From NCBI GenBank assembly GCA_018830295.1, contig JAHJSM010000001.1:321980-385979 (forward strand): a stretch of DNA of 64,000 bases, written 5' to 3'. Under the pieces are notes generated by a model. It saw only the letters and a program-made list of their open reading frames with translations, was not told the DNA's origin and made no database searches. Shown piece after piece: positions 27,100 through 53,964 of the stretch. The translations under genes were made by a program, and so were the position numbers. Source of the stretch: Patescibacteria group bacterium. GTDB lineage: Bacteria; Patescibacteriota; Minisyncoccia; Portnoybacterales; UBA2143. How positions within the stretch are numbered: the first letter of the stretch is position 1; each line of letters begins with the position of its first letter.

Positions 27100-27332
27100 T
27101 AGGTCTCGATTTCGTAATTAAAGGTCAGACCTTTCAAAACTGAAAAGGTCTGACATCACGAGTAGCGACATTTCTTAAGGTCGCGCTCGAGAGGTCGGAC
27201 CTTTGGAACCCGACGAAAGACTTTCTTAACTGCGCAAAATCAAGGTCAGACCTTCTGAGCGAAACCTTAAGAAAGGTCTCTACTCCGAATGTCTGACCTT
27301 GTCGCAGGATAAAGGTCTGACCTTTAATTAAA
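27100..27332. repeat. Family C MITE-like composite element (terminal inverted repeats TTAAAGGTCAGACCTTT / AAAGGTCTGACCTTTAA with internal modules)
   Basis: Contains GGTC(A/T)GACC cores several times plus module GAGTAGCGACATTTCTTAAGGTCGCGCTCG shared with copies at 31861, 33707, 44858. Confidence 0.8.
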
Positions 27333-27370
27333 TTGACTTCTCTTGTGTATTTATCTACAATACCATCACA

Positions 27371-27446
27371 TCGGGGCGTGGCCTAGCGGCTTAGGGCGCG
27401 GCGCTTGGGTCGCCGAGATCGCAGGTTCAAATCCTGTCGCCCCGAC
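27371..27446 (+). tRNA. tRNA-Pro (anticodon TGG)
   Basis: Cloverleaf folded by eye: acceptor CGGGGCG/CGCCCCG, anticodon loop CTTGGGT, T-loop TTCAAAT. Confidence 0.8.
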
Positions 27447-27484
27447 TTGGTTTTAGCGGGCTTGCCCGCCGAAGCCTTGCGAAG

Positions 27485-27556
27485 GCGGGTATCGTATAGT
27501 GGCTATTACCACAGATTTCCAATCTGTTGACGCGGGTTCGATTCCCGCTACCCGCT
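27485..27556 (+). tRNA. tRNA-Gly (anticodon TCC)
   Basis: Acceptor GCGGGTA/TACCCGC, anticodon stem ACAGA/TCTGT with loop TTTCCAA, T-loop TTCGATT. Confidence 0.75.
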
Positions 27557-27609
27557 CATGATTTTTCTCAAAATTTGACAAAATTTTTTGATTTATCTAA
27601 TATATAAAT

Positions 27610-27861
27610 ATGCTTACAGGATATATTTCACAAAAACTAAATAAAGCGCAATATAAGATTTTAGAAGACGGGGTTTATTTTGGAGAAATTCCAGGACTAA
27701 AAGGCGTCTGGGCTTCAGAGAAAAACTTAGAAGAATGCCGCGAAACCCTCCGTGAGGTATTGGAAGAGTGGTTGATTTTGAAATTGCAAGACGGAGATAA
27801 AATTCCAGATTTTCCAAAAGCAAAAGCTGCTCATAGATCTCCTATTTTAAGACATGCCTAA
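27610..27861 (+). CDS. hicB: HicB-family antitoxin (type II TA)
   Basis: 83 aa; YFGEIPGLKGVWASEKNLEECRETLREVLEEWL matches HicB N-terminal domain consensus; overlaps hicA by 8 nt. Confidence 0.7.
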   Translation: MLTGYISQKLNKAQYKILEDGVYFGEIPGLKGVWASEKNLEECRETLREVLEEWLILKLQDGDKIPDFPKAKAAHRSPILRHA

Positions 27862-28066
27862 AAATATCTCCTGGAGAAAATTAGTTAAGAATTTCAGGAA
27901 ACTTGGTTTTGACGGTCCATACAGCGGCGGCAAACATCAGTTTATGGCAAAAGATTCTTTAAAAGTTCATATCCCATCTAAACATCAAGGCGATATCAGC
28001 GCGGGATTAGTCAGTGAAATTCTCCGTCAAGCAGGAATAAATAAAAAAGAATGGGATAAATTTTAA
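27854..28066 (+). CDS. hicA: HicA-family mRNA interferase toxin (type II TA)
   Basis: 70 aa; WRKLVKNFRKLGF…GGKHQFM…VHIPSKHQGDISAGLVSEILRQAGI fits YcfA/HicA dsRBD-like toxin pattern. Confidence 0.75.
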   Translation: MPKNISWRKLVKNFRKLGFDGPYSGGKHQFMAKDSLKVHIPSKHQGDISAGLVSEILRQAGINKKEWDKF

Positions 28067-28217
28067 TTTCATAACCAACAAGAGCAATAAAAAGGTGAGG
28101 AATTCCTTGCCTTTTTTAATTTGATTCAAGGACACCCCTTGCCAAAGAAAATACAACTGAAATTTATATTTTAAATGAACAAAGTTGGAAAGGGGTGTCC
28201 TTTTCTTGACACAACTA

Positions 28218-28246
28218 TTGACAAGTTATTGTTTTTGTGCTAATTT
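28218..28246 (+). promoter_or_regulatory. Sigma70-like promoter (TTGACA-17-TAATTT)
   Basis: Preceded by a 12-bp inverted repeat (AGGACACCCCTT…AAGGGGTGTCCT, 28124-28200) that could be an operator or terminator of the TA pair. Confidence 0.35.
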
Positions 28247-28318
28247 GGGGGTGGTTGTAATGGAGTTTATGGGAGCAAAGAATTGTTATTTAACATAAAA
28301 ACATAGAGGAGGGGGGAT

Positions 28319-28636
28319 ATGAAGCCAACGAGGATAACTATAGGCGGGACAATATTTATTGTCCTTATGCTGTCTTTGTTTATAGGAATTTGTTTTGATG
28401 TAGAAATAGCAAAGGCAAGATACGAACTACAGCAAATATCGCAAGAAAAATCTGAAAAACCTTATGATGATGATGGTCTGGGGATGATGATAATAAAGGA
28501 ATGGAACACCTGTCTTATAAAAGAGGGATATCTTCAATGGAAAAAAGACTATCCTGAACGGGCAAAAAAAATTATCAGCATCGCTGTTAGCGGGGGTGGA
28601 AGTAATTATTTTATGTTGATTTATGAAACGGAATAG
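28319..28636 (+). CDS. Hypothetical small membrane-anchored protein
   Basis: Strong RBS GAGGAGGGGGG; N-terminal TM; 105 aa. Confidence 0.4.
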   Translation: MKPTRITIGGTIFIVLMLSLFIGICFDVEIAKARYELQQISQEKSEKPYDDDGLGMMIIKEWNTCLIKEGYLQWKKDYPERAKKIISIAVSGGGSNYFMLIYETE

Positions 28637-28655
28637 GCGCGTAACGCAAAAACAA

Positions 28656-28709
28656 AAACCGATGGTTGTGGTGTTGAAGTAAAACACCAAAAACAACCAT
28701 CGGTTTTTT
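28656..28709. terminator. Bidirectional rho-independent terminator
   Basis: AAAACCGATGGTTGT…ACAACCATCGGTTTTTT 15-bp stem flanked by A-run/T-run on both sides; second hairpin AAAATCCCGATT-TAAT-CGGGATTTT at 28778-28808 terminates hup on minus strand. Confidence 0.6.
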
Positions 28710-28828
28710 AATTTGCGGAGGTTCAACCTCCGAATGAATCCGGGGGCAGCCCCCGCAAAGATGCCCCCGAAGACAAAATAAAATCCCGATTTAATCGGGA
28801 TTTTATTTATGCTTTTGAAAGCGGTTCT

Positions 28829-29098
28829 TTACTTCACTGCGTCTTTTAACGCTTTGCCTGCTTTGAATTTCGGAACTGTTGTCGCGGCGATTTGAAGTTT
28901 TTCGCCGGTTCTTGGGTTGACTCCCATGCGGGCGGCTCTTTTTGAAACGCTGAATTTTCCAAAACCGGTCAAAACCACATCATTGCCTTTTGATAACGCG
29001 CTCGTGATAGTGTCGAGCATCGCGTTAACCGCTTCTGACGCTTCTTTTTTTGAACAGCAGTTGCCAGCAACCGCTTCAATTAATTCATCTTTAGTCAT
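28829..29098 (-). CDS. hup: HU-family nucleoid-associated DNA-binding protein
   Basis: 89 aa; MTKDELIEAVA…GFGKFSVSKRAARMGVNPRTGEKLQIAATTVPKFKAGKALKDAV typical HU/IHF. Confidence 0.85.
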   Translation of the reverse strand: MTKDELIEAVAGNCCSKKEASEAVNAMLDTITSALSKGNDVVLTGFGKFSVSKRAARMGVNPRTGEKLQIAATTVPKFKAGKALKDAVK

Positions 29099-29212
29099 TT
29101 TATATTAGCGAATAGCGGATAGTGAACAGCGAACAAAATTATTCACCGTCCATTGTCCATTATTCGTTTTTAATTACTTTCTCGACCTTTGCTTATTCTA
29201 ACAACTAAACTG

Positions 29213-29998
29213 CTATAAATCAACAATTTTTTGAATTCTTTCAATTTTATTAGCTTTTCCGTTTTTTCCTGTTCCTATTAAAACAGCGTCCACTTCTACT
29301 GGCCCCTCAGCAACTTCCAATCTTATATTGCCTTGCGTTAAATATCTTTTAATCGCGTCTTCTTTTCTTCTTCCTAAACTTGAGTCCCTTACGCCAACCA
29401 TTCCAACATCGGAGATATAGGCGGTGCCGTTAGGCAGAACTCTTTCGTCGGCGGTCGGAACATGGGTATGCGTTCCCAAGACAGCCGTCACTCGCCCGTC
29501 TAAATACCATCCTAAACAAACCTTTTCGGCTGTCGCTTCAGCGTGCCAGTCAACAATAATAATGTCGGCTTCTTCAGACATCGCTTTTAGGATTTTATCC
29601 GCTTTCCTAAAAGGGTCGTCGTATTGCTGCCGCATAAAGACCCGCCCGATTAAATTAATGACTAAAACCTTTTTAGTCCTTATTTCAATCAAACGATAGC
29701 CCTTTCCAGGCAAACCGGGCGGGAAATTAGCGGGACGAATTAAAGGAATTTTTTTATCTTCCAAAAGACCTGCTATTTCCTTGTGTTTCCAAGTATGGTC
29801 GCCTGAAGTGACTAAGTCAATACCTGCCCCCAAGACCTCTTCTAAACTATTTCGAGTAATCCCCGCGCCGTGAGCCATATTTTCTCCATTGGCGATTATC
29901 AGGTCCGGTTCAAATTCATCGCGCCAAAGCGGAATAACTTTCTTAAGCGCTTCCCGCCCCGGCCGTCCAACAATATCTCCCAAGAATAAGATTTTCAT
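29213..29998 (-). CDS. ymdB: YmdB-like metallophosphoesterase (2',3'-cyclic-nucleotide phosphodiesterase, TIGR00282 family)
   Basis: MKILFLGDIVGRPGR…NGENMAHGAGIT…VDWHAEATAEK…GTHTHVPTADE; start chosen at canonical MKILF (ORF track allows 30025). Confidence 0.8.
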   Translation of the reverse strand: MKILFLGDIVGRPGREALKKVIPLWRDEFEPDLIIANGENMAHGAGITRNSLEEVLGAGIDLVTSGDHTWKHKEIAGLLEDKKIPLIRPANFPPGLPGKGYRLIEIRTKKVLVINLIGRVFMRQQYDDPFRKADKILKAMSEEADIIIVDWHAEATAEKVCLGWYLDGRVTAVLGTHTHVPTADERVLPNGTAYISDVGMVGVRDSSLGRRKEDAIKRYLTQGNIRLEVAEGPVEVDAVLIGTGKNGKANKIERIQKIVDL

Positions 29999-30151: not shown

Positions 30152-31684
30152 CTACTTCGCGTATTCCACTGATCTTGTTTCTCTAATCACATTAACTTTA
30201 ATTTCCCCAGGGTACTTTAAGTCATGATGAATCTGTTCAGCGATATTTTTAGCTAACTTGTTCGCCGCGAGGTCGTCTATCTCTTCTGGATTAACGAAAA
30301 CGCGCACTTCTCTTCCGGCTTGGATTGCATAGACCTTTTTAACTCCAGGGAACGCTCCGGCGAGATCTTCCAATTCTTTCAGTCGTTTTAAATACGCCTC
30401 AAGGGTGTCTTTTCTGGCGCCTGGCCTGGCTCCGGAGATGGCGTCGGCGACTTGAACAATGATCGATTCCAAACTGGTGTAAGGATATTCCTCGTGGTGC
30501 GCTTGCATTGCTTCAATCACTTTTTCGTCCACATCAAATTTTTTGAGAATTTTTCTTCCGATCTCAACATGAGAACCCTGAATTTCATGGTCAACCGCTT
30601 TTCCAATATCGTGAAACAAACCCGCTTTTTTAGTCAAATCAACATTGGCGCCCAATTCTGAGGCGATCGCGCCTGCAATATGAGCCACTTCCAATGAGTG
30701 CAAAAGAATATTTTGTCCGTAACTTGTTCTAAATCTAAGCCGTCCTAAAAGTTTAATCAATTGCGGATTAATTCCCGCGACGCCGACATCATAGACAGTC
30801 GCCTCTCCCGCTTCAATAACTTTCTTATTGATTTCCTCCGAAGCGGCTTCTACCATTTCTTCAATGCGGCTTGGTTGAATTCTTCCGTCAAGAATTAGTT
30901 TTTCCAAAGCGATTTTAGCGATTTGACGGCGAACAGGGTCAAAGCCAGAGATGACAATCGCGCCGGGCGTATCATCAACTAAAATTTCCACGCCCGTGAG
31001 TTTTTCCAGCGTCTTAATATTTCGTCCCTCTTTTCCGATAATTCTTCCTTTCAAATCGTCGCTCGGCAAACGAACGGTTGAAGAAGTCGTTTCGCTTGAT
31101 TGCGAAGCGGCGTATCTTTGCATCGCCAAAGCGATGATTTTTTGCGCTTTCTTGTCTAATTCTTCTTTGCCTTCTTTTTCTAATTTACTCAATCGTTCTA
31201 AGAGCGCTTGTTGGTGTTCTTTTTCGGCGACAGCGAGAAGTTCTTCTTTCGCTTGGTCTTGCGAATATTGCGCGATTTTTTCTAACTTCTCTATTTGCTC
31301 TTGGCGTAATACATTGAGCCCTTCTTTAATTTTTTTAACCTTGCGGACTTTTGTTTTTAACTCGTCATATTTTTCCTCAAATTGGACGCCTTTTTGGTCC
31401 AAGTCCTGCTCTTTTCTCAATAACCGCTCTTCCATCCGAGTCAGTTGTTTTTGCCTGTCTCTTTCTTGCGCTTTGATTTCTTCAAGCACTTGGCCCGCTT
31501 TTTCTTTCGCTTGAAGTAGTGTTTCTTTCGCTTCGTCTTTCGCTTCGCTGATTAACTTATTTAGTTTTGACTCAATAGTCCCCGCCTGTTTTTTAGCAAT
31601 GGTCTGTCTGGTGTAATATCCCAAGATTGAGCCAAATGCTAAAGCGCCGATAAGTATAACGGCATCCAAAATTAAATTGTTCAT
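30152..31684 (-). CDS. rny: Ribonuclease Y
   Basis: N-terminal TM, coiled coil, KH domain (IGKEGRNIKTLEKLTGV), HD domain (HSLEVAHIAGAIASELG…FHDIGKA); rny-ymdB synteny as in Firmicutes. Confidence 0.9.
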   Translation of the reverse strand: MNNLILDAVILIGALAFGSILGYYTRQTIAKKQAGTIESKLNKLISEAKDEAKETLLQAKEKAGQVLEEIKAQERDRQKQLTRMEERLLRKEQDLDQKGVQFEEKYDELKTKVRKVKKIKEGLNVLRQEQIEKLEKIAQYSQDQAKEELLAVAEKEHQQALLERLSKLEKEGKEELDKKAQKIIALAMQRYAASQSSETTSSTVRLPSDDLKGRIIGKEGRNIKTLEKLTGVEILVDDTPGAIVISGFDPVRRQIAKIALEKLILDGRIQPSRIEEMVEAASEEINKKVIEAGEATVYDVGVAGINPQLIKLLGRLRFRTSYGQNILLHSLEVAHIAGAIASELGANVDLTKKAGLFHDIGKAVDHEIQGSHVEIGRKILKKFDVDEKVIEAMQAHHEEYPYTSLESIIVQVADAISGARPGARKDTLEAYLKRLKELEDLAGAFPGVKKVYAIQAGREVRVFVNPEEIDDLAANKLAKNIAEQIHHDLKYPGEIKVNVIRETRSVEYAK

Positions 31685-31860
31685 ATATTGTTTTCAATTC
31701 AAATTTCATTGCAAGTCCAAATAACCCCGATAAGGGCGATTGGGCTAAAATATTCCGATTAATAATCAAACTTCGCAACATAACCAATGAAAATTTGTAA
31801 TTTAGTTAATGACTTTCAAAATCGTATCAAAGAAAAGCCTAGATGTCAATTGGGACGGCC

Positions 31861-32062
31861 AAAAAGGTCCGACCTCTCAAGCGCGACCTTAAGAAATGTC
31901 GCTACTTGCGATGTCAGACCTTCTCGGTTCTAAAAGGTTTCTAAAAGGTCAGACCTTTCAAGACAACAACTCGTAACAGTTTATTTTCTCGTGACAAACT
32001 GATGGAAAGGTCTGACCTTTTATTTCTTTCTAAAGGTCGCGCTCATAGGTCGAACCTTTTCT
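31861..32062. repeat. Family C MITE-like composite element
   Basis: AAAAGGTCCGACC…AGCGCGACCTTAAGAAATGTCGCTACTTGCGATGTCAGACCTT…AAAAGGTCAGACCTTTC…GACAAACTGATGG…AAAGGTCTGACCTTTT. Confidence 0.8.
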
Positions 32063-32075
32063 TTTTCAATATTTT

Positions 32076-32106
32076 AGGGACAGTCCCTGTTGCGGGGACT
32101 GTCCCT
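32076..32106. repeat. Family B palindromic element
   Basis: AGGGACAGTCCC-tgttgcg-GGGACTGTCCCT. Confidence 0.85.
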
Positions 32107-32162
32107 AAAATATCCCCAAAATAAAAAGAACTGTCCTTTTACAGACAGTCCATTTTATTTAT

Positions 32163-33500
32163 CTATTTTTCTTTTTTCTTAACTTTCTTTTTTTCTTTTT
32201 TATCAGGTGTTTTTTCGCTTTTCTCTGCTTTTTTCTCTTTCTTCTCCTTCATTTCTTTCTTAACTTCTTTTTTAATTACTTTCTTTTTTTTCTTTTCTTC
32301 TTTTTCTTCCTTCGGCTTTTCTTTCTCCGCGGCGACAATATCAATTTTCCATCCCGTTAATTTGGCGGCTAATCGGACATTTTGCCCCTTAACGCCGATT
32401 GCCAAAGAAAGTTGGTCCTCGGGCACAGCCACTTCGGCTTGTCCTTTCTCTTTGTCTATTTTAACATTAACCACTTTAGCAGGAGAAAGCGCGTGGCTTA
32501 TAAACTTAAAAGGGTCTTCCGCCCATTGGACAATATCAATTTTTTCGCCAGATAATTCGTTAATTACGGCTTGGACGCGCGTTCCTTTTTGCCCAATCAT
32601 TGAGCCAATCGGGTCAACTCTCTCTTCCGTTGAAGCAACGGCGATTTTAGTGCGAGAACCCGCTTCTCTCGCGATTGATTTAATCACAACCGTTTCTGCG
32701 GCAATTTCAGGGACTTCAAGCGCGAAAAGTTTGCTCACCATTTTAGGATGCGCTCTTGAAAGAGTTACCATCGGGCCGCGCGAATCCTTGTGCGCTTCAA
32801 CGATATAAACCCTTAATCGCTGGCCAATTCGGTAATATTCGCGAGGGATTTGCTCCTCCGGGAACATTACGCCCGTCGCTTTGCCAATATCCAAAAAGAC
32901 ATTATTATTCTCTATCCTTTGGACAATACCGCTCGCGATGTTTCCTTCTTTGTCTTTGTATTCTTCGTAAATCGCTTCTCTTTCCGCTTCTCTGATGCGC
33001 TGGATAATGACTTGCTTAGCGGTTTGGGCGGCAATCCGTCCAAAATCGCCCGCGACTTCCAAAGGAAATTCAATTTCATCTCCCGGCTTTATTTTCTCTT
33101 TTATTTTTTCGGTTAATTTTTTCCCTTTGAAAATCGGCTTTTCTTTCAAATTAATATCTTTGACTTCTTCAATTAAAATGTGTTTTTCTGGATTAAGTCG
33201 AATTTTTCTCTCGGTTTCCCCTCCTTCGCCTTTAACTTCGTTCCTTTCTTCCGTTTCAATTTCCCCTTCCTCGCCTTCATCTGTCTTTAACATTGACTTA
33301 TCAACAACAAGTTTAATTTGAAAGACCTTCATTTCTTTTTCCAAATTAAAATCAACCCGAATATTCTGGTTTTTGCGGCCATATTCTTTCTTATAGGCGG
33401 CCGCCAAAGCCATTTCCACGGTCTCCATAACCCTTTCTCTGGAAATGCCCTTCTCCTCGCAAATTTGTTCAATTGCTGAAGCAAATGGTTGTTTCTCCAT
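32163..33500 (-). CDS. nusA: Transcription termination/antitermination factor NusA with acidic insertion and Lys-rich C-terminal tail
   Basis: N-terminal MEKQPFASAIEQICEEKGISRERVMETVEMALAAAYKK, S1 and two KH domains (IGQKGTRVQAVINELSGEKIDIV; IGVKGQNVRLAAKLTGWKIDIV); about 50-aa E-rich insert and KEKK-repeat tail. Confidence 0.9.
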   Translation of the reverse strand: MEKQPFASAIEQICEEKGISRERVMETVEMALAAAYKKEYGRKNQNIRVDFNLEKEMKVFQIKLVVDKSMLKTDEGEEGEIETEERNEVKGEGGETERKIRLNPEKHILIEEVKDINLKEKPIFKGKKLTEKIKEKIKPGDEIEFPLEVAGDFGRIAAQTAKQVIIQRIREAEREAIYEEYKDKEGNIASGIVQRIENNNVFLDIGKATGVMFPEEQIPREYYRIGQRLRVYIVEAHKDSRGPMVTLSRAHPKMVSKLFALEVPEIAAETVVIKSIAREAGSRTKIAVASTEERVDPIGSMIGQKGTRVQAVINELSGEKIDIVQWAEDPFKFISHALSPAKVVNVKIDKEKGQAEVAVPEDQLSLAIGVKGQNVRLAAKLTGWKIDIVAAEKEKPKEEKEEKKKKKVIKKEVKKEMKEKKEKKAEKSEKTPDKKEKKKVKKKEK

Positions 33501-33639
33501 AATAGTAAATATTTGATATTTGGGGGCAGCCCTCGATTAGTTAAAAAAATCCGTTTTGAAAAACGGATACTCTCCTCCCACTCCCATCCAAATCATCACT
33601 ATCTTATCACAACTCCAAATCCCTTGTCAAACGAAATTT

Positions 33640-33670
33640 GGGGACAGTCCCCGCAACAGGGACTGTCCCC
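33640..33670. repeat. Family B palindromic element
   Basis: GGGGACAGTCCCC-gcaaca-GGGACTGTCCCC. Confidence 0.85.
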
Positions 33671-33706
33671 AAATAACCCAAATGCCTTGACCTTTCGCCT
33701 GAAAGA

Positions 33707-33798
33707 AATTAAAGGTCAGACCTCTCAAGCGCGACCTTCGGAAATGTCGCTACTTGCGATGTCAGACCTTCTTGGTTCTTAAAGGTCTGACCTTTAAT
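33707..33798. repeat. Family C MITE-like element
   Basis: ATTAAAGGTCAGACC…AGCGCGACCTTCGGAAATGTCGCTACTTGCGATGTCAGACCTT…AAAGGTCTGACCTTTAAT. Confidence 0.8.
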
Positions 33799-33864
33799 TT
33801 CTTGACTGTCCCCAAATGCCTTGACCTTTCGCCTCGTTTTTTATATAATTTCAACTAGGAAATC

Positions 33865-33897
33865 GGGGACAGTCCCTCGCCGCGAGGGACTGTCCCC
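33865..33897. repeat. Family B palindromic element (identical to copy at 34222-34254)
   Basis: GGGGACAGTCCC-tcgccgcga-GGGACTGTCCCC. Confidence 0.9.
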
Positions 33898-33941
33898 AAA
33901 CAAACTTAGTTTCTTAACATTCTAAAAAAAGGGGGTGCGGA

Positions 33942-34145
33942 ATGAAATTAAACGAAAGAGATAAAAAAATATTATTAAATGCTTTGAGACATTATTTAGG
34001 GAAGACACTCCGCGTAGATAAGGCCGCTGATGTAATGCGGTTGATGAAAAGAATAGAAGGAAAAGAAGATATACAAAACAAGTTAAGGAATCATCCAGAT
34101 TTCGTTAAAGATTTTAAAAATATTGGCGCGCTTATATTTTCTTAG
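33942..34145 (+). CDS. Small hypothetical protein (67 aa) in repeat-flanked cassette
   Basis: Strong RBS AAAGGGGGTG 6 nt upstream; helical basic protein; followed by terminator hairpin CCCTCC-caaaaa-GGAGGG TTTT (34184-34210). Confidence 0.35.
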   Translation: MKLNERDKKILLNALRHYLGKTLRVDKAADVMRLMKRIEGKEDIQNKLRNHPDFVKDFKNIGALIFS

Positions 34146-34221
34146 ATGGTTAATAAGCGCAGAGTCCCAAACCTCTAAACAAAAAACCCTCCCAAAAAGG
34201 AGGGTTTTAAATTTGTTTCTT

Positions 34222-34254
34222 GGGGACAGTCCCTCGCCGCGAGGGACTGTCCCC
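34222..34254. repeat. Family B palindromic element (identical to 33865-33897)
   Basis: GGGGACAGTCCC-tcgccgcga-GGGACTGTCCCC. Confidence 0.9.
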
Positions 34255-34264
34255 GGTATTTCTT

Positions 34265-35158
34265 TCATTCCTTAACATTCCTCAAATACTTATAAACCCC
34301 GGTGGCGGCGACTGCCCCTTCGGCGCAGGCGGTGATAATTTGTTTGAGAGGGTTGTTGGTAATATCCCCTGCCGCGAAAACGCCTGGGACATTGGTTGCT
34401 TGTTCTTTATTGACGGCAATAAAATTATTATCCATTTCTATTTTCAATTCGCCGCATAAATGGACATTTGGCACGCCGCCAACTTCAATAAAAAGTTCGT
34501 TAAGTTTCACTTCGTTCCCGTTATTGAGAATAATTTTCTCAAGCGATTTTTTGCCCTTCGCTTCGGCGACTTGGGCGCAATAAAGAATTTCAATATTCTC
34601 CTTCTTTTCCGCTTTTTTAACCAAACTTGGCGCTCCCCGAAATTCGTCTCGGCGGAGAATTATGTACGCTTTTTTAGCGTAATCAGAGACCTTTAACACA
34701 AGAGTTAACGCGCTGTCTCCTCCTCCAACCACGGCGACAGTTTTGTTTTTTAGCGTGGAAATATCAGGCGCGCAATACGAAATTCCTTTATTTAAAAATT
34801 TATCTTCGTTTTTTATCCCCAACTTTCGCATTTTCATTCCCAATCCCAAAATTAACGATTTGGCTTGATACCTTCCTTTATCGGTTACCACTTCAAAAAT
34901 GGGGGACTTAACCCCACTTTTTGTCAACTTTACAACTTGTTCGTTTTTGGTTTTGGCATTGAAATGTTCGTAAAATTTCTTTGCCAAATCAGGTCCCGAA
35001 ATGGACTTAAATCCCAAATAGTTATCAACAATATGGGCTTCATTGACAGTTCCGCCCTTTATTTGCCCGATAACTAAAAAATTAATCCCATACCTTCGGG
35101 CGTATATCCCAGCTGACAAACCAGCCGGTCCTCCGCCAATGATAATCAAATCATACAT
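34265..35158 (-). CDS. Thioredoxin-reductase-like FAD/NAD(P) oxidoreductase lacking the CxxC redox motif
   Basis: [20 protein letters not shown] (FAD GxGxxG), VAVVGGGDSAL (NADPH site), GVFAAGD; position of canonical CATCDG reads YCAPDIS. Confidence 0.7.
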   Translation of the reverse strand: MYDLIIIGGGPAGLSAGIYARRYGINFLVIGQIKGGTVNEAHIVDNYLGFKSISGPDLAKKFYEHFNAKTKNEQVVKLTKSGVKSPIFEVVTDKGRYQAKSLILGLGMKMRKLGIKNEDKFLNKGISYCAPDISTLKNKTVAVVGGGDSALTLVLKVSDYAKKAYIILRRDEFRGAPSLVKKAEKKENIEILYCAQVAEAKGKKSLEKIILNNGNEVKLNELFIEVGGVPNVHLCGELKIEMDNNFIAVNKEQATNVPGVFAAGDITNNPLKQIITACAEGAVAATGVYKYLRNVKE

Positions 35159-36382: not shown

Positions 36383-36410
36383 TTTTGACTATTGAAAGGC
36401 AAAAGAGAAA

Positions 36411-36493
36411 TTAAAGGTCAGACCTTCCCATCAGTTTGTCACTAAACAATAAGCAGTCGCGATAATGTCGTTTTGAAAGGTCTGACCTTTAAT
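36411..36493. repeat. Family C MITE-like element
   Basis: TTAAAGGTCAGACCTTCC-CATCAGTTTGTCAC-…AAGCAGTCGCGATAATGTCGTTTTG-AAAGGTCTGACCTTTAATT. Confidence 0.85.
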
Positions 36494-36595
36494 TCTCTTG
36501 CTATGTTTCTTTTTTATATCCAAATCTGAATTGCAGCCCCGCAATTCTGCGGGGCACTAATTTTTGAAACCAAATCAGAATTTGGACAAAAATTG

Positions 36596-36666: not shown

Positions 36667-36674
36667 TGAATCTT

Positions 36675-36708
36675 GGGGACTGTCCCTATAATTATAGGGA
36701 CAGTCCCC
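36675..36708. repeat. Family B palindromic element (opposite arm order; loop TATAATTATA)
   Basis: GGGGACTGTCCC-tataattata-GGGACAGTCCCC. Confidence 0.85.
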
Positions 36709-36719
36709 GTGTTTTTGGC

Positions 36720-37727: not shown

Positions 37728-39179
37728 TTATTTAACCCAATATTTGCCTTTCATCTCTGAGTCAACTTCTTCTTTTTTTTCTTTTATCTTTTTATCTCTC
37801 GTTTTTAATTCTTTGTCGGAGAGTTTGTTTAGTTCTTTGGCTATTTCGGAGAGTTTCTTTTTTGTGTTGATTTTTGGGTTTTCTAACGCTTCAGAGAGGA
37901 GGGCGTTAAGGATTAGTCCTAATTTTGGTCCGGGTTTGGTTTCTAAAATTTTCATTAAATCGTCCCCGTTGATTTTGAGCATCTTGACGGAGATAGGATC
38001 TTTGGAAACCTTTTCAATTAGATATTCTAAATGTCTTAATTTGTAAGGAACCGCCTTTGGGCATCCGCTTCCCAATCTATCAGTTATTCGCAATTTGAGC
38101 AAGTCCCCCATATTCTCGCGCCCAACCCGCCTCAAAAGCCGCCTTACGCCCGTTTCGCTCACCTCGTCCACGCCGTAAACAAACATGTGGTTGCGGACTA
38201 AATGCGCGACTTTTTCAATTGTTTTTTTGGGAAATCTCAATCGTTGGAGAATGTTGGCGGCGAATCGGGCGCCGACAATATCGTGGTTGTAAAAGGTGGA
38301 ATATTCCCCTTGACCTCTTTTTGTTTGCGGTTTGGCAATGTCATGCAAAAGAGCGGCGAGGCGGACTTCCAGCCCGTACTTTCTTTTTGCGCCGAATTTC
38401 AAAGCCAAAACGCAATGGCGATAAATGCTGTAAATGTGATGCCTGTTTTGCGCGACGCCAATCCCCTTTTCCAATTCTGGAATAATATATTTTAGCAGAC
38501 CTGTTTCTCGCAATAATTCAATCGCCTCTTCTGGTTCATCCGCCATAATCATTTTAATCAGTTCATCGCGGATTCGTTCTTTAGCGATTGCTTGAAGCCA
38601 GGCAGCGTTCTTTTTAATCGCTTCCAGCGTCTGGGTTTCAATTTGCCATTTTCCGGCGGGCGAACCCAACTCCGCCGTGAAACGGATGGCTCTCAACATT
38701 CTCAAGGCGTCTTCGCCAAATCTGTTGTCCGCCTTCCTTACGGCTTTAATAAGCCGTTTTTTAATGTCTTCTTGCCCGCCAAAAAGGTCAATCAATTCTC
38801 CTTTTTTATTTAAAGCGAGCGCGTTAATCGTGAAGTCGCGGCGCGAAAGGTCTTTTTCTACGCGGATGGTGAAACTGACTTTATCGGGATGTCGCTTGTC
38901 GGTGTATCTTTGTTCCGTTCGAAAAGTGGTGATTTCAACCTCTTTCAACGCCCTTTCCTCGCTTTCCGTCTTGACTGTGACTGTTCCAAATTTGTTCGCG
39001 TAAAAACTGTCAGGAAATATGCCTTGAATTTCTTCGGGCTTCGCTTTGGTTGTAATATCCCAATCCTTTGGCTTTTTGCCAAGCAGAATGTCGCGAACGC
39101 AGCCGCCCACCGCGTATGCCTCAAATCCCCCCTTTTCCAATTTCCCTAAAATATCTTTTATTTCCTTCGGAAGTTTCAT
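37728..39179 (-). CDS. cca: CCA-adding tRNA nucleotidyltransferase with C-terminal HD domain
   Basis: GGCVRDILLGKKPKDWDITT (PolB-type NTase motif), RRDFTINALA, HD domain (HHIYSIYRHC…LLHDIAKP). Confidence 0.8.
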   Translation of the reverse strand: MKLPKEIKDILGKLEKGGFEAYAVGGCVRDILLGKKPKDWDITTKAKPEEIQGIFPDSFYANKFGTVTVKTESEERALKEVEITTFRTEQRYTDKRHPDKVSFTIRVEKDLSRRDFTINALALNKKGELIDLFGGQEDIKKRLIKAVRKADNRFGEDALRMLRAIRFTAELGSPAGKWQIETQTLEAIKKNAAWLQAIAKERIRDELIKMIMADEPEEAIELLRETGLLKYIIPELEKGIGVAQNRHHIYSIYRHCVLALKFGAKRKYGLEVRLAALLHDIAKPQTKRGQGEYSTFYNHDIVGARFAANILQRLRFPKKTIEKVAHLVRNHMFVYGVDEVSETGVRRLLRRVGRENMGDLLKLRITDRLGSGCPKAVPYKLRHLEYLIEKVSKDPISVKMLKINGDDLMKILETKPGPKLGLILNALLSEALENPKINTKKKLSEIAKELNKLSDKELKTRDKKIKEKKEEVDSEMKGKYWVK

Positions 39180-39269
39180 GGTCTCATCATAACGCGATTA
39201 GATTTTTTCCGCAATCTATCCCTAGACAATTTGACCGAGGGGCGGTTTTGGTTTAGAGTGGTGGTAGAT

Positions 39270-39342
39270 GCGCCCGTAGCTCAACGGATAGAGTATCGCG
39301 CTTCGGACGCGAGGGTTGGGGGTTCGAGTCCCTCCGGGCGCA
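39270..39342 (+). tRNA. tRNA-Arg (anticodon TCG)
   Basis: Acceptor GCGCCCG/CGGGCGC, anticodon stem TCGCG/CGCGA, loop CTTCGGA. Confidence 0.7.
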
Positions 39343-39353
39343 CATAAACATTC

Positions 39354-39425
39354 GCGCTCATAGCTCAATGGTAGAGCAGTTGCCTCTTAAGCAATTGGTT
39401 CCAGGTTCAAATCCTGGTGGGCGCA
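39354..39425 (+). tRNA. tRNA-Lys (anticodon CTT)
   Basis: Acceptor GCGCTCA/TGGGCGC, anticodon loop CTCTTAA, T-arm CCAGG TTCAAAT CCTGG. Confidence 0.75.
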
Positions 39426-39472
39426 CAAGTTTTAATTTGCTTTTTTTTGTTTTGTCTGATAGAATAGGGGAT

Positions 39473-39742
39473 ATGTTAAAACCAAGTAAAAAGTCAAAAA
39501 TAATTGGCGATTATAAGACGCATGAGAATGATACTGGCTCTTCGGAGGTTCAGATTGCTATTCTCACTAAGCAGATTGAAGAACTCGCCAAGCATCTTAA
39601 GACGCATACCAAAGACAACCACTCTCGCAGAGGGCTTTTGAAAATGGTCGCCAAAAGAAAAAAACTTCTTGACTATTTAAAAAAAGAAAACGAAAAAAGT
39701 TATAAGAAGGTTACCAAAAAGTTGGGGCTGAAGACAAAATAA
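39473..39742 (+). CDS. rpsO: 30S ribosomal protein S15
   Basis: [69 protein letters not shown]; upstream part of ORF-track frame overlaps tRNA-Lys and is not coding. Confidence 0.85.
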
Positions 39743-40278
39743 TGCCTATTCTTAAACATAAAGAACAGAGGGTTGCTGTTTTAGTTGATGTTCAAAATAT
39801 GTATCACTCCGCCAAAAACCTTTACGGGGCGAGAGCGAACTTTAACGAGATTTTGAAGGCGGCGGTCGGGCAGAGGAAGTTGATTCGGGCGATCGCTTAC
39901 ACAACAAGAACGGAAACACCTGAAGAAAAAACCTTTTTTGACGCTTTGGAGAAGGCTGGTTTTGAGGTCAAAACAAAGGATTTGCAGATTTTTCCGGGCG
40001 GAATGAAAAAGGGGAATTGGGATGTTGATATCGTAATTGACGCGATTAAATTTTCTAACGCAGTTGACGCGATTGTTTTAGTGACAGGGGATGGCGATTT
40101 CGTGCCTTTAGTTGAATATCTTAAATTAACTCGTGGCGTTCAAACGGAAGTCATTGCTTTTGAGCGAAGCGCTTCCGCTAAATTAAAGGAGGCATCAGAC
40201 GATTTCATTGATTTGAGCGAGAATAAGGGCAAGTATTTAATCAGAAGCGGCGGCGGGAAGAAGAATATCAAAAAATAA
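39742..40278 (+). CDS. NYN-domain (LabA/DUF88-like) putative ribonuclease
   Basis: VAVLVDVQNMYHS…DVDIVIDAIK…IVLVTGDGDFVPLVEYLK, acidic residues in NYN/PIN-like arrangement; located between rpsO and pnp. Confidence 0.6.
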   Translation: MPILKHKEQRVAVLVDVQNMYHSAKNLYGARANFNEILKAAVGQRKLIRAIAYTTRTETPEEKTFFDALEKAGFEVKTKDLQIFPGGMKKGNWDVDIVIDAIKFSNAVDAIVLVTGDGDFVPLVEYLKLTRGVQTEVIAFERSASAKLKEASDDFIDLSENKGKYLIRSGGGKKNIKK

Positions 40279-44423: not shown

Positions 44424-44857
44424 TTAAGAGGTCTATGGGGACAAACTGTGGATAAGTAGGGGTTGACAGGGATAACTTTTAAATTGTAAAATAGTAGTAA
44501 GTTTTTTGCTGGCTATTGTCGGCTAGTTCTTTAATAAAAAAGTCCTCGGAGGGAGGACTAATAGACAGCAAAAGATAAATGTTTTTCTGTAAGAAAATAA
44601 AATATAAAAAAGATGATGGTTATCCTATAAGAGATGGAGGGTGATAGGGTAATATCTCTACATTATAGAAAAACAAGAGAGGATTTGATCCTAAAAAATA
44701 AAAAAAACGAGGCATCAAATCCTCTCTAATATATATCACATATTTAGAGAATAGTCAGTAGTTTTCATAAGTTAGCGGCCACTTGGTCGTTTTTTTTGTT
44801 TGATTGATTTGTCTCGGCGGTTGGGGTAAAATAAGAGAGATGGATTGGTAAGCAAAG

Positions 44858-44915
44858 AGGTTTGACATAAAGAGTAGCGACATTTCTTAAGGTCGCGCTC
44901 GTAGGTCAAACCTCG
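44858..44915. repeat. Family C variant element (TIR GAGGTTTGAC…GTCAAACCTC around module GTAGCGACATTTCTTAAGGTCGCGCTCG)
   Basis: Shares internal module with 27100 and 31861 copies. Confidence 0.7.
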
Positions 44916-46219: not shown

Positions 46220-46249
46220 GGGGACTGTCCCCTCTTGGGGACAGTCCCC
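46220..46249. repeat. Family B palindromic element
   Basis: GGGGACTGTCCCC-tcttg-GGGACAGTCCCC. Confidence 0.85.
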
Positions 46250-46419
46250 CTTTGGGATAGGGGAAAAAGGCGTCAGGAATCTTTTTGGAACAGATAAAAA
46301 ATCATTCGGCTATCGGAAAGCCGAATAAGGGAATAAAATAGAAGATAAAGATTTGGCATTGTTGATTTTTCGCTTTTTTGTGATAAAATGGAAGGAGTGA
46401 AGTTATTAAAAATAAAGAT

Positions 46420-48388: not shown

Positions 48389-48410
48389 TAAGAAGTATCC
48401 ACAATTAAAA

Positions 48411-48494
48411 TTAAAGGTCAGACCTTTCCATCAGTTTGTTGCTAGATAATAAGCAGTCGTGATGATGTCGTTTTGAAAGGTCTGACCTTTAATT
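48411..48494. repeat. Family C MITE-like element
   Basis: Near-identical to 36411-36493 copy (CATCAGTTTGT, AAGCAGTCGTGATGATGTCGTTTTG modules). Confidence 0.85.
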
Positions 48495-48500
48495 TCTTAA

Positions 48501-49386: not shown

Positions 49387-49387
49387 T

Positions 49388-50543: not shown

Positions 50544-50632
50544 TTCGTAGGCGGAAGGATTTTAAAGAGCCAAAGCAAAATGCTTTTGGCTCTTTTATTT
50601 TCCGCCGAAAACTGGTATTGTGTTAATAATTT

Positions 50633-50662
50633 GGGGACTGTCCCCAAGAGGGGACAGTCCCC
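50633..50662. repeat. Family B palindromic element
   Basis: GGGGACTGTCCCC-aagag-GGGACAGTCCCC. Confidence 0.85.
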
Positions 50663-50677: not shown

Positions 50678-51937
50678 ATGAAAAATACAATTAAAAAAAT
50701 TACTCCCAACTCTCTTTTAAGCGCCTATCATTTCCTGCTTTCTTTTTTGGGCGCGGTTTTTTATGGCTTTCCCTCGCGAAAACTAAAAATAATCGGGGTG
50801 ACAGGGACGAATGGCAAGTCAACGACAGTGTTTTTAATCAATCAGATTTTAGAAAAGGCGGGATATAAGACGGCTTCTTTGTCGTCTATCTATTTTACAA
50901 CCAACGGCGATATTGAGCTAAACAATCTAAAAATGACCATGCCTGGTCGTTTTAAAATCCATAAGTTTTTGAGGCGGGCGGTTGAGGCGGGATGTCAATA
51001 CGCCGTTTTGGAAATAACTTCAGAGGGGATTAAACAGCATCGCCATCGTTTTATTGGTTTTGATACGGCTGTTTTCACTAATCTTACGCCTGAACATATA
51101 GAAAGCCACGGCGGATTTGAGAATTATAAAAAAGCGAAAGGAAAACTTTTTCAATCGCTTAAGCCAAATGGTAAATCAATTGTTAATTTAGACGACCCAA
51201 ACAGCCATTATTTCTTGCGATTCGCGGCGAAAGAAAAATGGGGATACACATTACAACAGGGGGCTGCCCCCGTGGCGGGGGCAGCCCCCGTCGTAAAAGG
51301 AGAGAAAATCGAGATAAAAAAATCTTATTCTTCATTCTTCATTAATAATTCATTATTCATAATTCATCTTTTAGGCAAATTTAATATTTCTAACGCCTTG
51401 GCGGCGATTGCGGTTGGAACGGCGGAAGGAATTTCTTTAGAGAAAATGAAGTTGGCTTTAGGGGAAATAAAAGGCATTCCCGGTCGTTTAGAAATAGTTA
51501 CTAAGGAACTATTTACAGTAATTGTTGATTACGCTCATACGCCAGACGCTTTAGAAAAGGTCTATCAAACCGCGCGAAAAATGTCTGATGGAAAATTAAT
51601 AGGCGTTCTTGGTTCGGCGGGCGGAGGCAGAGACAAATGGAAAAGACCTGAAATGGGAAAAATCGCGGAAAAATATTTGGATATGATTATTATTACTAAC
51701 GAAGACCCTTACGACGAAGACCCGAGCCAGATTATTAGCGAAATCGTTGAAGGGATAAAAAATAAAGAGGTTAAAAAAATTATTGACCGCAGAGAAGCAA
51801 TTCGCTACGCTCTAAAAATAGCGGAAAAAGACGATGTGGTTATTATTACGGGCAAAGGATGCGAATTATGGATGTGCGTTGAAGGAAATAAAAAAATCCC
51901 TTGGGATGACAGGAAAGTAGTTAAGGAGGAGATTTAA
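50678..51937 (+). CDS. Mur ligase family protein (MurE-like UDP-MurNAc-tripeptide synthetase), carrying in-frame family A repeat
   Basis: IIGVTGTNGKSTTVFL P-loop, DYAHTPDAL, ligase C-terminal domain; QQGAAPVAGAAPVV encoded by the palindrome. Confidence 0.7.
   Translation: MKNTIKKITPNSLLSAYHFLLSFLGAVFYGFPSRKLKIIGVTGTNGKSTTVFLINQILEKAGYKTASLSSIYFTTNGDIELNNLKMTMPGRFKIHKFLRRAVEAGCQYAVLEITSEGIKQHRHRFIGFDTAVFTNLTPEHIESHGGFENYKKAKGKLFQSLKPNGKSIVNLDDPNSHYFLRFAAKEKWGYTLQQGAAPVAGAAPVVKGEKIEIKKSYSSFFINNSLFIIHLLGKFNISNALAAIAVGTAEGISLEKMKLALGEIKGIPGRLEIVTKELFTVIVDYAHTPDALEKVYQTARKMSDGKLIGVLGSAGGGRDKWKRPEMGKIAEKYLDMIIITNEDPYDEDPSQIISEIVEGIKNKEVKKIIDRREAIRYALKIAEKDDVVIITGKGCELWMCVEGNKKIPWDDRKVVKEEI
51259..51289. 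repeat. Family A palindromic element inside Mur ligase CDS
   Basis: GGGGGCTGCCCCC-gtggc-GGGGGCAGCCCCC. Confidence 0.85.
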
Positions 51938-51950
51938 TAAGCATACAATT

Positions 51951-53216
51951 ATGATTTTCTTAGAAAAAATATTTTTTTATCTTTTGGTTTTCTGTTTGCC
52001 CTTCCAAACGCGTAAAGTGATTTGGCAGTGGGGTGAGAATGGTTTTAATGAGTGGACGAGCGCTTTTCTTTATTTAACCGATATTTTAATTTTAATTCTT
52101 TTTCTTTTTTGGTTTTTGAGGAACAGAGAAAAAAGATTTTTTAAGAATGGGATTAAGATGGCGAGGGGAGCAGTCGCAAGAGGCGGTTTTTGGCTGATTG
52201 TTTTTTTGGCGATTGCTTTGGTTTCTCTGATTCAGGCGCGTAATATTCAATTAGGTTTCTATTCTTGGCTTAAACTTTTAGAATTTGCTCTTTTGTTTTT
52301 CTATCTAAAAAATAATTTTAAAGATTTATTTAATTTTACCCGCCTTTCCCAAGCGCTTGTAATGAGTGGGTTTGCTCAGTCGTTGATTGTTTTATGGCAA
52401 TACGCGGGGCAAAAAGGGCTGGAGATAAACGGCGTCGCTAAAATTATTGTTGATGGAGTGACACTTATGCGCCCTTACGGTTCTTTTCCTCACCCAAATG
52501 TTTTGGCGGCTTTTCTTTTACTCTGTATTTTTTGCCTCTATTCTCTCTGGCTCGCGAAAAAACGATCTTTTGTTTGGAATTGTCTTTTGATTATTGCTGG
52601 ATTTTTAATAATATTCGCTTTTTGGCTCTCTTTTTCGCGAACCGCCCTTTTAGTTTTTTTAATCACAATCCCTCTTTATTTTATCCTTCTATTAAAACAA
52701 AAAAGAAATATCCTTATCTTTCTCTTTATTGTTTTCTGCAGCGTTCTTTTTGTTTTTTTGGCCGGGGCGGAAGTTTCGTCTCGGTTCGCGATTTCAACAT
52801 CAGAGCAAGCGGTTGGATTGCGCGCTTTTTATAATGAAACGGCTCTTTCTATTATCAATCAATATCCTCTATTCGGAGTAGGTCAGGGAAATTTTGTTTG
52901 GGAAATCAGCAAAGCGCTTGATTTAATGTCTGCCTGGCTCTATCAGCCGGTCCATAATATCTATTTGCTTATCGCCAGCGAAACAGGGTTGTTCGGGTTG
53001 ATCGCTTTTCTTATGTTTCTTTTTTTGATTTTGTCTGAGATATTTGGGGACTGTCCCCGTTGCGGGGACAGTCCCCAAATAATAGGGCTTGTCATTGTTT
53101 TCTTCGGATTTCTATTTATGGCTCTATTTGACCACTACTTCTGGACAATTCAGCAAGGGCAGTTAATGTTTTGGTTGGTCTTGGGCGTTATCGCAAGCAA
53201 TTCGGCTATCCGATAG
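51951..53216 (+). CDS. O-antigen ligase / Wzy_C-domain membrane protein, paralog 3, carrying in-frame family B repeat
   Basis: Polytopic, PVHNIYLLIASETGLFGL Wzy_C motif; the repeat is translated as GDCPRCGDSPQ. Confidence 0.55.
   Translation: MIFLEKIFFYLLVFCLPFQTRKVIWQWGENGFNEWTSAFLYLTDILILILFLFWFLRNREKRFFKNGIKMARGAVARGGFWLIVFLAIALVSLIQARNIQLGFYSWLKLLEFALLFFYLKNNFKDLFNFTRLSQALVMSGFAQSLIVLWQYAGQKGLEINGVAKIIVDGVTLMRPYGSFPHPNVLAAFLLLCIFCLYSLWLAKKRSFVWNCLLIIAGFLIIFAFWLSFSRTALLVFLITIPLYFILLLKQKRNILIFLFIVFCSVLFVFLAGAEVSSRFAISTSEQAVGLRAFYNETALSIINQYPLFGVGQGNFVWEISKALDLMSAWLYQPVHNIYLLIASETGLFGLIAFLMFLFLILSEIFGDCPRCGDSPQIIGLVIVFFGFLFMALFDHYFWTIQQGQLMFWLVLGVIASNSAIR
53046..53076. repeat. Family B palindromic element inside CDS
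   Basis: GGGGACTGTCCCC-gttgc-GGGGACAGTCCCC. Confidence 0.85.
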
Positions 53217-53228
53217 CCGAACAAGATT

Positions 53229-53255
53229 AAACCCCGACGGTTTTGTCGGGGTTTG
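53229..53255 (+). terminator. Rho-independent terminator (hairpin family D: CCCCGACGG…GTCGGGG)
   Basis: AACCCCGAC-ggttttg-TCGGGGTTT followed by GGTTG; related hairpin at 59477-59511. Confidence 0.45.
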
Positions 53256-53429
53256 GTTGAAGTCGGTCAGTGCCCGCATCCGCAATCACATCGGCAGCCG
53301 CAATTTGCGACGCGACGAATAATAAAACGAACTAAGCGCGCATACCTCAAACCCTTGTCCATACTCTCACCTCCTTTAAAAGAACTATTTATAGATTACC
53401 AAAAAAGAAACAAAAGTCAATCTATTTCC

Positions 53430-53501
53430 GTCCCCATAGCTTAACGGATAAAGCGCGGCCCTCCGGAGGCCGAAATCGAGGTTCGATTCCCCGTGGGGAC
53501 A
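53430..53501 (+). tRNA. tRNA-Arg (anticodon CCG)
   Basis: Acceptor GTCCCCA/TGGGGAC, anticodon stem CGGCC/GGCCG, loop CTCCGGA, T-loop TTCGATT. Confidence 0.65.
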
Positions 53502-53592
53502 CCCGTTTTTAAAAATTTGACTTTATTCTATAAAAATGTTAAAGTCCTTTGAATTAGTTCATTAACTTTTTCATAAAAAAAGGGGTGGTGAA

Positions 53593-53820
53593 ATGGAAAA
53601 TATTAATATGGATAATGCTTATAATTACTATGCCAATATGGGGGTGTATGCTTATGTCCACTCTTGTGGTAGCGGAGACTTAAAATTTCTTGGGCTCTCC
53701 GGAGAACATAACGAGAATGTTGATTTCTTTTGTAATGAATGTAAAAGAAATTTCTCGGTAGAATGCAAGGGAGGATATTTAAAAAGTAAGGGACAAATTT
53801 TGACAATGCTGTATCCATAA
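53593..53820 (+). CDS. Small zinc-ribbon hypothetical protein (75 aa)
   Basis: Strong RBS AAAAGGGGTGGTG; HSCGSGD…CNECKRNFSVEC. Confidence 0.35.
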   Translation: MENINMDNAYNYYANMGVYAYVHSCGSGDLKFLGLSGEHNENVDFFCNECKRNFSVECKGGYLKSKGQILTMLYP

Positions 53821-53908
53821 TTCATTTCAACAAAAAGCCACTGCGAAAAAACGCGGCGGCTTTTTATATTATATGGATATGATATAATGAAATAAGATAT
53901 GCAATAAA

Positions 53909-53964
53909 TTAAAAGTCAGACCTTTCCATCAGTTTGTCACTTTTGAAAGGTCTGACCTTTAATT
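53909..53964. repeat. Family C MITE-like minimal element
   Basis: TTAAAAGTCAGACCTTTC-CATCAGTTTGTCAC-TTTTGAAAGGTCTGACCTTTAATT. Confidence 0.85.

Follow-up and report, generated by a model that had tools for sequence, protein, structure and literature searches.

Intergenic repeats in a Patescibacteria genome resemble the REP/REPIN elements of a REPIN/RAYT system

Repetitive extragenic palindromes (REPs) and their REP-associated tyrosine transposases (RAYTs) have mostly been studied in Pseudomonas and enterobacteria. In Pseudomonas fluorescens SBW25, extragenic palindromes are arranged as inverted doublets (REPINs) that form one long hairpin, rank among the most frequent oligomers, are lineage-specific, and flank a RAYT gene at a fixed, apparently vertically inherited locus (PMC3116915, PMC5581495). 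The REPs of Escherichia coli (TnpA_REP, RayT/YafM, PDB 4ER8; PMC3479197; Ton-Hoang 2012) carry an invariant GTAG next to the hairpin and stand in alternating mosaic clusters with conserved linker modules, the bacterial interspersed mosaic elements (BIMEs). Di Nocera et al. 2013 described REP dimers within longer palindromes, as well as ‘TIRYT’ RAYT-like genes flanked by inverted repeats, which form moderately abundant families (PMC3733652). Flanking of the RAYT gene by the same repeats, together with lineage-specific REPs, is the defining pattern of REP/REPIN-RAYT systems (PMC3116915, PMC5581495, PMC3733652). Here we analyse a family of intergenic repeats, family C, in a 64,000-nucleotide stretch (the window) of contig JAHJSM010000001.1 from a Patescibacteria group bacterium (assembly GCA_018830295.1), which a preliminary description had presented as modular elements akin to miniature inverted-repeat transposable elements (MITEs). 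The NusA encoded in the window has an exact match in GCA_018820055.1, and its closest homologue, at 98%, carries the annotation Candidatus Portnoybacteria; an exact-protein look-up with S20 gave no record. We conclude that family C probably comprises the REP/REPIN-type elements of a REPIN/RAYT system in a Portnoybacteria-like Patescibacteria genome. The proper name for the elements is REP/REPIN/BIME-like, not MITE.

The seven loci of the preliminary description are all real, and the content described is present at each. Searching for AAGGTCWGACCTT with at most one mismatch gave 14 matches in the window, all of them intergenic, against 0.06 expected from 100 dinucleotide-preserving shuffles. 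A looser scan placed 21 cores inside the seven loci (27.1-54.0 kb) and only two isolated matches outside them, at 17407 (coding) and 16050 (intergenic). Of the 23 cores, 21 are in the seven intergenic loci and one is coding, in a window of which 11% is intergenic and where the family occupies 7 of the 30 spacers of at least 50 bp. As with the REPINs of SBW25, the repeats are among the most frequent oligomers; the commonest 16-mer of the window is AATTAAAGGTCAGACC (9 copies).

The core is a 15-nt palindrome, AAAGGTC-W-GACCTTT, with its dyad around a single central base. Every simple copy has a central A in the left core and a central T in the right core, which makes the two cores true inverted copies. 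The inverted repeat usually extends outward to (G)AAAGAAATTAAAGG, also written (G)AAAGAAATT, and the basic REP unit is the 15-nt palindrome plus the outer arm GAAAGAAATT. The inverted arrangement of the supposed terminal inverted repeat GGTC(A/T)GACC is thus genuine, whereas each core is itself a palindrome and the inverted repeat is usually longer than proposed. In the window these are short, over-represented and extragenic palindromes, as REPs are. Unlike the REPINs of SBW25, they are built on a perfect 15-nt dyad around one base.

The seven loci contain about 12 units of two types. Type I units (~83 bp) consist of two inverted cores around a 50-nt spacer, with the consensus AAAGAAATTAAAGGTCAGACCTTTCCATCAGTTTGTCACTAAATAATAAGCAGTCGCGATAATGTCGTTTTGAAAGGTCTGACCTTTAATTTCTTT (12 copies aligned, from the window and metagenome contigs). 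Type II units (~60 bp) consist of two inverted cores around a GTAG-tagged hairpin and follow the pattern AAGGTCTGACAT-N5-GTAG-NGAC-loop-GTNNCGCT-N4-AGGTCNGACCTT. The arms that enclose the nested GTAG hairpin are AAGGTCNGACCTT. This nesting recalls the REPs within longer palindromes of PMC3733652, as does a copy in contig L021 that itself lies within a palindrome; that study lists GTAG repeats for Proteobacteria, Cyanobacteria, Chloroflexi and the PVC superphylum but not for Patescibacteria, and the sequences are unrelated. The three internal modules noted previously are real, and the third is present in both orientations.

We assembled 12 type II copies (10 distinct rows; 5 copies from the window). 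GTAG is invariant in all 12, as it is in E. coli REPs, but it is missing both in type I elements and in the doublets beside the RAYT genes of contigs L024 and L037 described below. In the proposed type II hairpin, 97.9% of cells are paired, a share that falls to 90% in shuffles and to 20-49% in slid controls. Compensatory changes on both sides affect five base pairs, and several G-U pairs occur, on the GTAG strand only. The GTAG hairpin is under structural constraint. Unlike in E. coli, the GTAG lies partly within the stem (G paired, TA bulged, G paired) with no free 5' tail, and the stems are A/T-rich.

All units fold as a long hairpin in single-stranded DNA (ssDNA; z -5 to -9). For the simple copies the ssDNA fold energies range from -15 to -26 kcal/mol (z -6 to -9), and these are inverted doublets in the sense of REPINs. 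The composites at 27117-27328 and 31863-32059 are clusters of alternating orientation whose linkers come from a small conserved repertoire, as in the BIMEs of E. coli, and similar clusters occur in contigs L010, L016 and L024.

We next consider mobility, using related sequences. An 18-mer scan of metagenome contigs returned 19 loci, and 39 loci were examined overall. The same length of probe matched three times in 185,579 species-representative genomes, one match being a solo palindrome in a Patescibacteria metagenome-assembled genome (MAG). Contig L034 (GCA_022013995.1) is 98-99% identical to window positions 30159-34812 but free of family C cores. From the nusA terminator to the rny -35 box it has only CTT, flanked by TTTTATTTTG and CAATTGACA, where the window has a 233-bp block (~31853-32085). 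This block, which includes a doublet of a second palindrome family, is also absent from L035 and L036. Upstream of nusA, L034 lacks the 33703-33803 element and its neighbours.

The outgroup contig L036 (about 75-81% identical) is element-free at four orthologous spacers, which identifies the window elements as gains. Its tRNA-Ala/tRNA-Pro spacer measures 25 bp against 212 bp in the window, its counterpart of the 27.1-kb cluster is an element-free stretch of 96 bp, and the 33703-33803 element is missing as well. At a site where the window reads only AATGCGGGGGGGCTGCCCCC, contig L021, which matches window 57044-59699 at 91% identity, holds a type I element that separates the halves of a G/C-rich palindrome. 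Some clusters persist, since L016 (85% identical) has the 27.1-kb mosaic too, with another central spacer. The elements have thus been gained and lost recently: they vary in presence between 98%- and 91%-identical relatives and with respect to an outgroup, without target-site duplication, which bears out the idea of a single modular family of non-autonomous mobile elements. Seven further contigs (L007, L008, L009, L011, L012, L017 and L023) hold copies whose surroundings bear no relation to the window. The family thus also occurs outside this region; restriction to it is what the preliminary description had named as fatal to its reading.

In contig L035 (~77% identical), at 3079-3224, non-self-complementary cores AGGTCTAACCT and AGGTTAGACCT, each following AAAAAAGGTTCGACTAAAA, stand on either side of the orthologous tRNA-Ala gene. 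The same variants are found in L010, which indicates that the core sequence drifts between lineages.

Other differences between the window and its relatives were seen in the same comparisons. The Lys/Glu-rich C-terminal tail of NusA (window 32163-32300) extends ~24 residues beyond that of the 98%-identical strain (445 vs 421 amino acids), and a 72-bp stretch upstream of rny (31709-31779) is a further indel, absent from L034. A HicB/HicA toxin-antitoxin pair (27610-28066) and an adjacent open reading frame (ORF) are replaced in L016 by unrelated sequence of similar length (window 27576-28743 vs L016 479-1685); the region appears to be a variable cassette, with tRNA-Pro/tRNA-Gly and the repeat mosaic as its neighbours.

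The related contigs also supply a candidate enzyme. In L024, an ORF at 1125-1730 (201 amino acids) matches Pfam Y1_Tnp (E 1.8e-14), and its best NCBIfam family is the REP-associated tyrosine transposase; it carries the HUH motif MPNHIHLL and the tyrosine motif SSYIHLNP. AGGTCWGACCT cores bracket this gene, as a doublet on the 3' side and a single arm on the 5' side, and a few hundred bases from it are family C mosaics. Contig L032, from a different sample, holds a RAYT fragment 92% identical to that of L024 with the same 5' flank. In L037 the RAYT is 74% identical, and perfect doublets of the form AGGTCAGACCT-TTTTGATACAACC...GGTTGTATCAAAA-AGGTCTGACCT flank the gene on each side and also occupy three of the adjacent spacers, which makes 12 cores over 9.2 kb. 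Flanking of the RAYT by the same repeats is seen in L024, L032, L037-L039 and the distant L005. In L005 (CAYHPU010000110.1) the RAYT, at 1514-2266, is 34% identical and is flanked by the identical AGGTCWGACCT core; this contig is binned as ‘uncultured Gammaproteobacteria’, which could reflect mis-binning, horizontal transfer or convergence.

The protein family has 1,902 homologues at E <=1e-10, some of them named RayT by JGI. NCBIfam REP_Tyr_transpos is matched by 25/25 aligned members (best E 5.7e-25), whereas the IS200 transposase model is matched by 3/25, weakly. A profile search found E. coli TnpA_REP (4ER8) to be the best solved relative over the whole domain; the similarity is visible at the profile level only (E 8.7e-5). 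On these sequence comparisons, the family looks like RAYT rather than IS200/IS605 TnpA.

The RAYT locus has a conserved order, with genes for a giant LTD/beta-helix protein, RAYT, an NTP_transferase, an extracytoplasmic function (ECF) sigma factor and DUF5667, and this synteny is kept in six lineages (contigs including L024, L025-L030, L033 and L037-L039). No tnpB was found beside the RAYT gene at the sampled loci. Each lineage has its own palindromes around the RAYT gene, alike in design and present in nearby spacers as well (for example TGGAGCWGCTCCA, AGGTTNAACCT, AAGGACGTCCTT and AAGGCCTGGCCTT). Much as in SBW25, the related contigs show lineage-specific REPs and a RAYT flanked by the same repeats at what appears to be a fixed, vertically inherited locus. 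Unlike in SBW25, the RAYT-flanking doublets have no 5' GTAG and the RAYT clade falls below the NCBIfam equivalog cut-off. The giant LTD/beta-helix protein is a surface protein, and in L037-L039 an extra LAGLIDADG-like ORF is inserted at the locus.

Put together, two inverted REPs and their spacer would constitute a REPIN that forms one long hairpin when single-stranded, and units that nest or abut would give the BIME-like mosaics. The elements, which encode nothing, would be moved in trans by a RAYT (Y1/HUH, IS200-like) whose single-copy gene would lie at another place in the genome, enclosed by doublets of the same core. Judging from the related contigs, this genome presumably has such a gene. 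By analogy with E. coli TnpA_REP and IS200/IS605, the predicted enzyme would recognise the hairpin in ssDNA, for example at replication forks, cleave beside it via a 5'-phosphotyrosine link, and reinsert it without target duplication, so that the element is either moved or copied. A mechanism of this kind, acting on ssDNA hairpins, is known for the TnpA_REP and IS200/IS605 enzymes (PMC3479197, PMC6006769), and the absence of target-site duplication is what Y1 transposition leads one to expect. Insertions would reach intergenic spacers, several of them at or near the centre of other palindromes. A secondary role in transcription or mRNA stability may exist.

Several observations weigh against assigning family C to a REPIN/RAYT system. 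No RAYT was found in the window (Pfam on 67 ORFs, and tblastn), so the RAYT link rests on contigs of related organisms. Contig L024 was recovered from the sample that also yielded the 91%-identical L021 and may or may not belong to the same organism. The L024 RAYT scores 68.4 bits against an NCBIfam equivalog cut-off of 80, a single-sequence search of the PDB returned no solved relative, and GTAG, which is found only in the inner hairpin of type II units, is missing from the doublets beside the RAYT genes, so that the enzyme may read either the W-centred dyad or the GTAG hairpin. Window copies differ from each other by ~8-13% rather than forming a cloud of identical copies. Contig L034 is a short MAG contig, and assembly artefacts are possible, though they are unlikely to remove repeats cleanly. 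Finally, an exact 24-nt direct repeat, CCCAAATGCCTTGACCTTTCGCCT, lies on either side of the 33703-33803 element, at 33676-33700 and 33811-33834 (~31 nt with an indel); a single related copy, AAAAGGTCAAGG, stands in the empty strain L034. This 24-31 bp duplication greatly exceeds the length of a normal target duplication and is not what one would predict from simple Y1 transposition.

Classical bacterial MITEs, such as the Correia elements of Neisseria and the pneumococcal RUP, have target-site duplications and derive from insertion sequences (ISs) with a DDE transposase. Family C shares with them its small size, non-coding intergenic position, inverted termini (perfect over 15-28 nt) and presence/absence polymorphism between strains; Correia and RUP elements can also affect neighbouring transcription. 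Were family C a deleted IS derivative of this kind, a DDE transposase would have acted on duplex GGTCAGACC terminal inverted repeats and left a TTAA or TA target duplication. However, among 21 doublets the 33703-33803 case is the only one with a flanking direct repeat, and an atypical one: at the other 20, direct matches between the flanks reach 4-8 nt at most and fall at inconsistent places. The TTAA-like ends, put forward earlier as possible target-site duplications, are symmetric (AATT/TTAA) and belong to the inverted repeat. A transposase of any kind is lacking in the window, and none stands beside copies in 20 metagenome loci except the Y1 RAYT; no full-length parent IS with the same termini was found in the window or the 39 loci examined. 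The proposed search for a transposase recognising these termini thus yielded something else, namely a Y1/HUH RAYT in related contigs, and this RAYT, at its fixed syntenic locus, is the sole gene found bracketed by the termini. RAYT-type enzymes act on single-stranded hairpins, not on duplex terminal inverted repeats (PMC3479197, PMC6006769). The MITE model is accordingly set aside as very improbable.

The same repeats might instead be reiterated functional sites kept by selection, such as operators for a dimeric protein, bidirectional terminators or mRNA-stabilising hairpins. The perfect 15-nt dyad of the core would suit such a role, as would the position of copies between terminators and promoters or at gene ends and the solo 23-nt palindrome between convergent genes in L003; secondary roles of this type are known for the REPs of other bacteria (PMC3733652). 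Yet the elements are absent at the same genes in the 98%-identical strain and at four outgroup spacers, which implies that the neighbouring genes do not need them, and copies lie upstream of genes as often as downstream, several directly before starts or promoters. Identity with known rho-independent terminators, which would have undone the preliminary reading, is not borne out: a terminator scan flagged one arm pair only (27124-27154), separate conventional terminators and promoters are present beside the elements, and the modules are shared between copies. Selection for function also leaves unexplained why the central base is strictly A on the left and T on the right and why the core is linked to a RAYT, and we regard it as unlikely. 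Were the elements duplicates of structured small-RNA genes or of cis-regulatory RNA motifs, this would account for the strong folds, the compensatory changes and the restriction of G-U pairs to the GTAG strand. Against this, Rfam at gathering thresholds detected nothing in the window but tRNAs, units face either way with respect to adjacent genes, the near-perfect long duplex is typical of inverted-repeat DNA, and an ssDNA hairpin recognised by a Y1 enzyme predicts the same covariation; an RNA origin is very improbable. A REPIN/RAYT system remains the probable explanation.

The features are collected in Table 1. The preliminary description had placed copies often next to tRNAs; this is so for three loci (those at 27100, 36411 and, at a distance of ~400 bp, 53909), while the remaining loci are not beside tRNA genes. 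The type I copy at 48407-48498 is 87% identical to that at 36408-36508.

Table 1. Family C elements and related palindrome doublets in the window.
Feature	Coordinates	Strand	Details and context
Composite BIME-like cluster	27117-27328		Outer cores 27120-27134 (central A) and 27311-27325 (central T); between histidine-kinase start (27049) and tRNA-Pro promoter (TTGACT at 27333)
Type II unit in 27117-27328 cluster	27144-27204	GTAG on +	Orientation opposite to next unit
Type II unit in 27117-27328 cluster	27241-27301	GTAG on -	Orientation opposite to previous unit
Three-part composite	31863-32059		Between nusA terminator and rny promoter
Type II part of composite	31863-31923	GTAG on -	
Type I variant doublet of composite	31944-32020	-	
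Truncated type II part of composite	32032-32059		
Doublet with full arms	33703-33803		Arms AAGAAATTAAAGGTC...GACCTTTAATTTCTT; upstream of nusA promoter; fold -26.3 kcal/mol, z -7.4; adjoins half of a GGGGACWGTCCCC palindrome
Type II unit in 33703-33803 doublet	33711-33771	GTAG on -	
Type I element	36403-36499	+	~83 bp between cores plus outer arms; tRNA-Ala/tRNA-Pro spacer; z -6.2
Solitary type II GTAG unit	44857-44915	+	Variant arms GAGGTTTGAC / GTCAAACCTC; z -7.2; ends 9 bp upstream of Mrr-like ORF
Type I element	48407-48498	+	Most of the 112-bp spacer from rpsT stop to LysM/CHAP gene start; z -9.3
Short type I element	53904-53967	+	28-nt internal deletion; ends 6 bp upstream of yidD start; z -6.4
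Empty site	59294-59313		Window has only AATGCGGGGGGGCTGCCCCC; type I element here in L021
Second doublet family	15921-15953, 17227-17257, 32076-32106, 33640-33670, 33865-33897, 34222-34254		
Second doublet family, further copies	36674-36709, 46220-46250, 50632-50662, 51259-51289, 53046-53076		

A second family of palindrome doublets, GGGGACWGTCCCC-N4-6-GGGGACWGTCCCC with the variant GGGGGCWGCCCCC, has the same design of one-base-centred dyads in inverted pairs. L034, at 98% identity, lacks four of its copies, those at 32076, 33640, 33865 and 34222. This is probably another REPIN family with its own RAYT.

The window has further features of note. At ~39000-40000 the cumulative GC skew reaches a minimum and the skew changes sign, and gene orientation flips at the same point, between the gene for the CCA-adding enzyme (-) and tRNA-Arg/tRNA-Lys/rpsO/pnp (+); this may be the replication origin region. 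An assignment of the 39-44 kb segment to a str operon was rejected, the genes being rpsO, a NYN-domain gene and pnp. A VirB4/TraG-like ATPase, TraX and a type IV pilus/type II secretion system (T2SS)-like set (PilB-like ATPase, PilC-like T2SSF, pseudopilins and PilM) are encoded at 5779-7605, 16087-16746, 20761-25609 and 56922-57947. Such genes are typical of Patescibacteria episymbionts.

A literature search found no earlier description of REP, REPIN or RAYT elements in Patescibacteria or the candidate phyla radiation (CPR). The REPIN/RAYT studies consulted concern Proteobacteria such as Pseudomonas and Enterobacteria, and the broad surveys among them name other phyla, whereas the host here belongs to the tiny-genome Patescibacteria. 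Most likely, the system is of a kind already known, and its occurrence in Patescibacteria may be new.

We also raise, as a tentative proposal that is more doubtful than the REPIN/RAYT assignment, that Patescibacteria may possess an old, vertically inherited RAYT clade fixed beside an ECF sigma operon. Its REPs would be perfect one-base-centred dyads that co-diversify with the enzyme and insert preferentially in palindrome centres, giving ‘palindromes of palindromes’. The dyads (AGGTC-W-GACCT, TGGAGC-W-GCTCCA, GGGGAC-W-GTCCCC and others) would take the place of GTAG-tailed imperfect hairpins. If this proposal is true, the clade would be a RAYT group of its own that recognises DNA by another rule, and would provide a series from which the specificity code between RAYT and REP could be read.

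These findings would extend the host range of REPIN/RAYT systems, which are apparently active in ~1-Mb Patescibacteria genomes where non-coding DNA is scarce. For genome reconstruction, the elements explain breaks in short-read MAGs of this organism, since contigs of GCA_018820055.1 end inside them, and they serve as strain markers that differ between 98%-identical genomes. Lying between the terminators and promoters of nusA, rny, rpsT, yidD and tRNA genes, they could change the expression of these genes. Orthologous RAYTs with different flanking palindromes, in turn, form a series in which to study how such enzymes select the DNA they act on.

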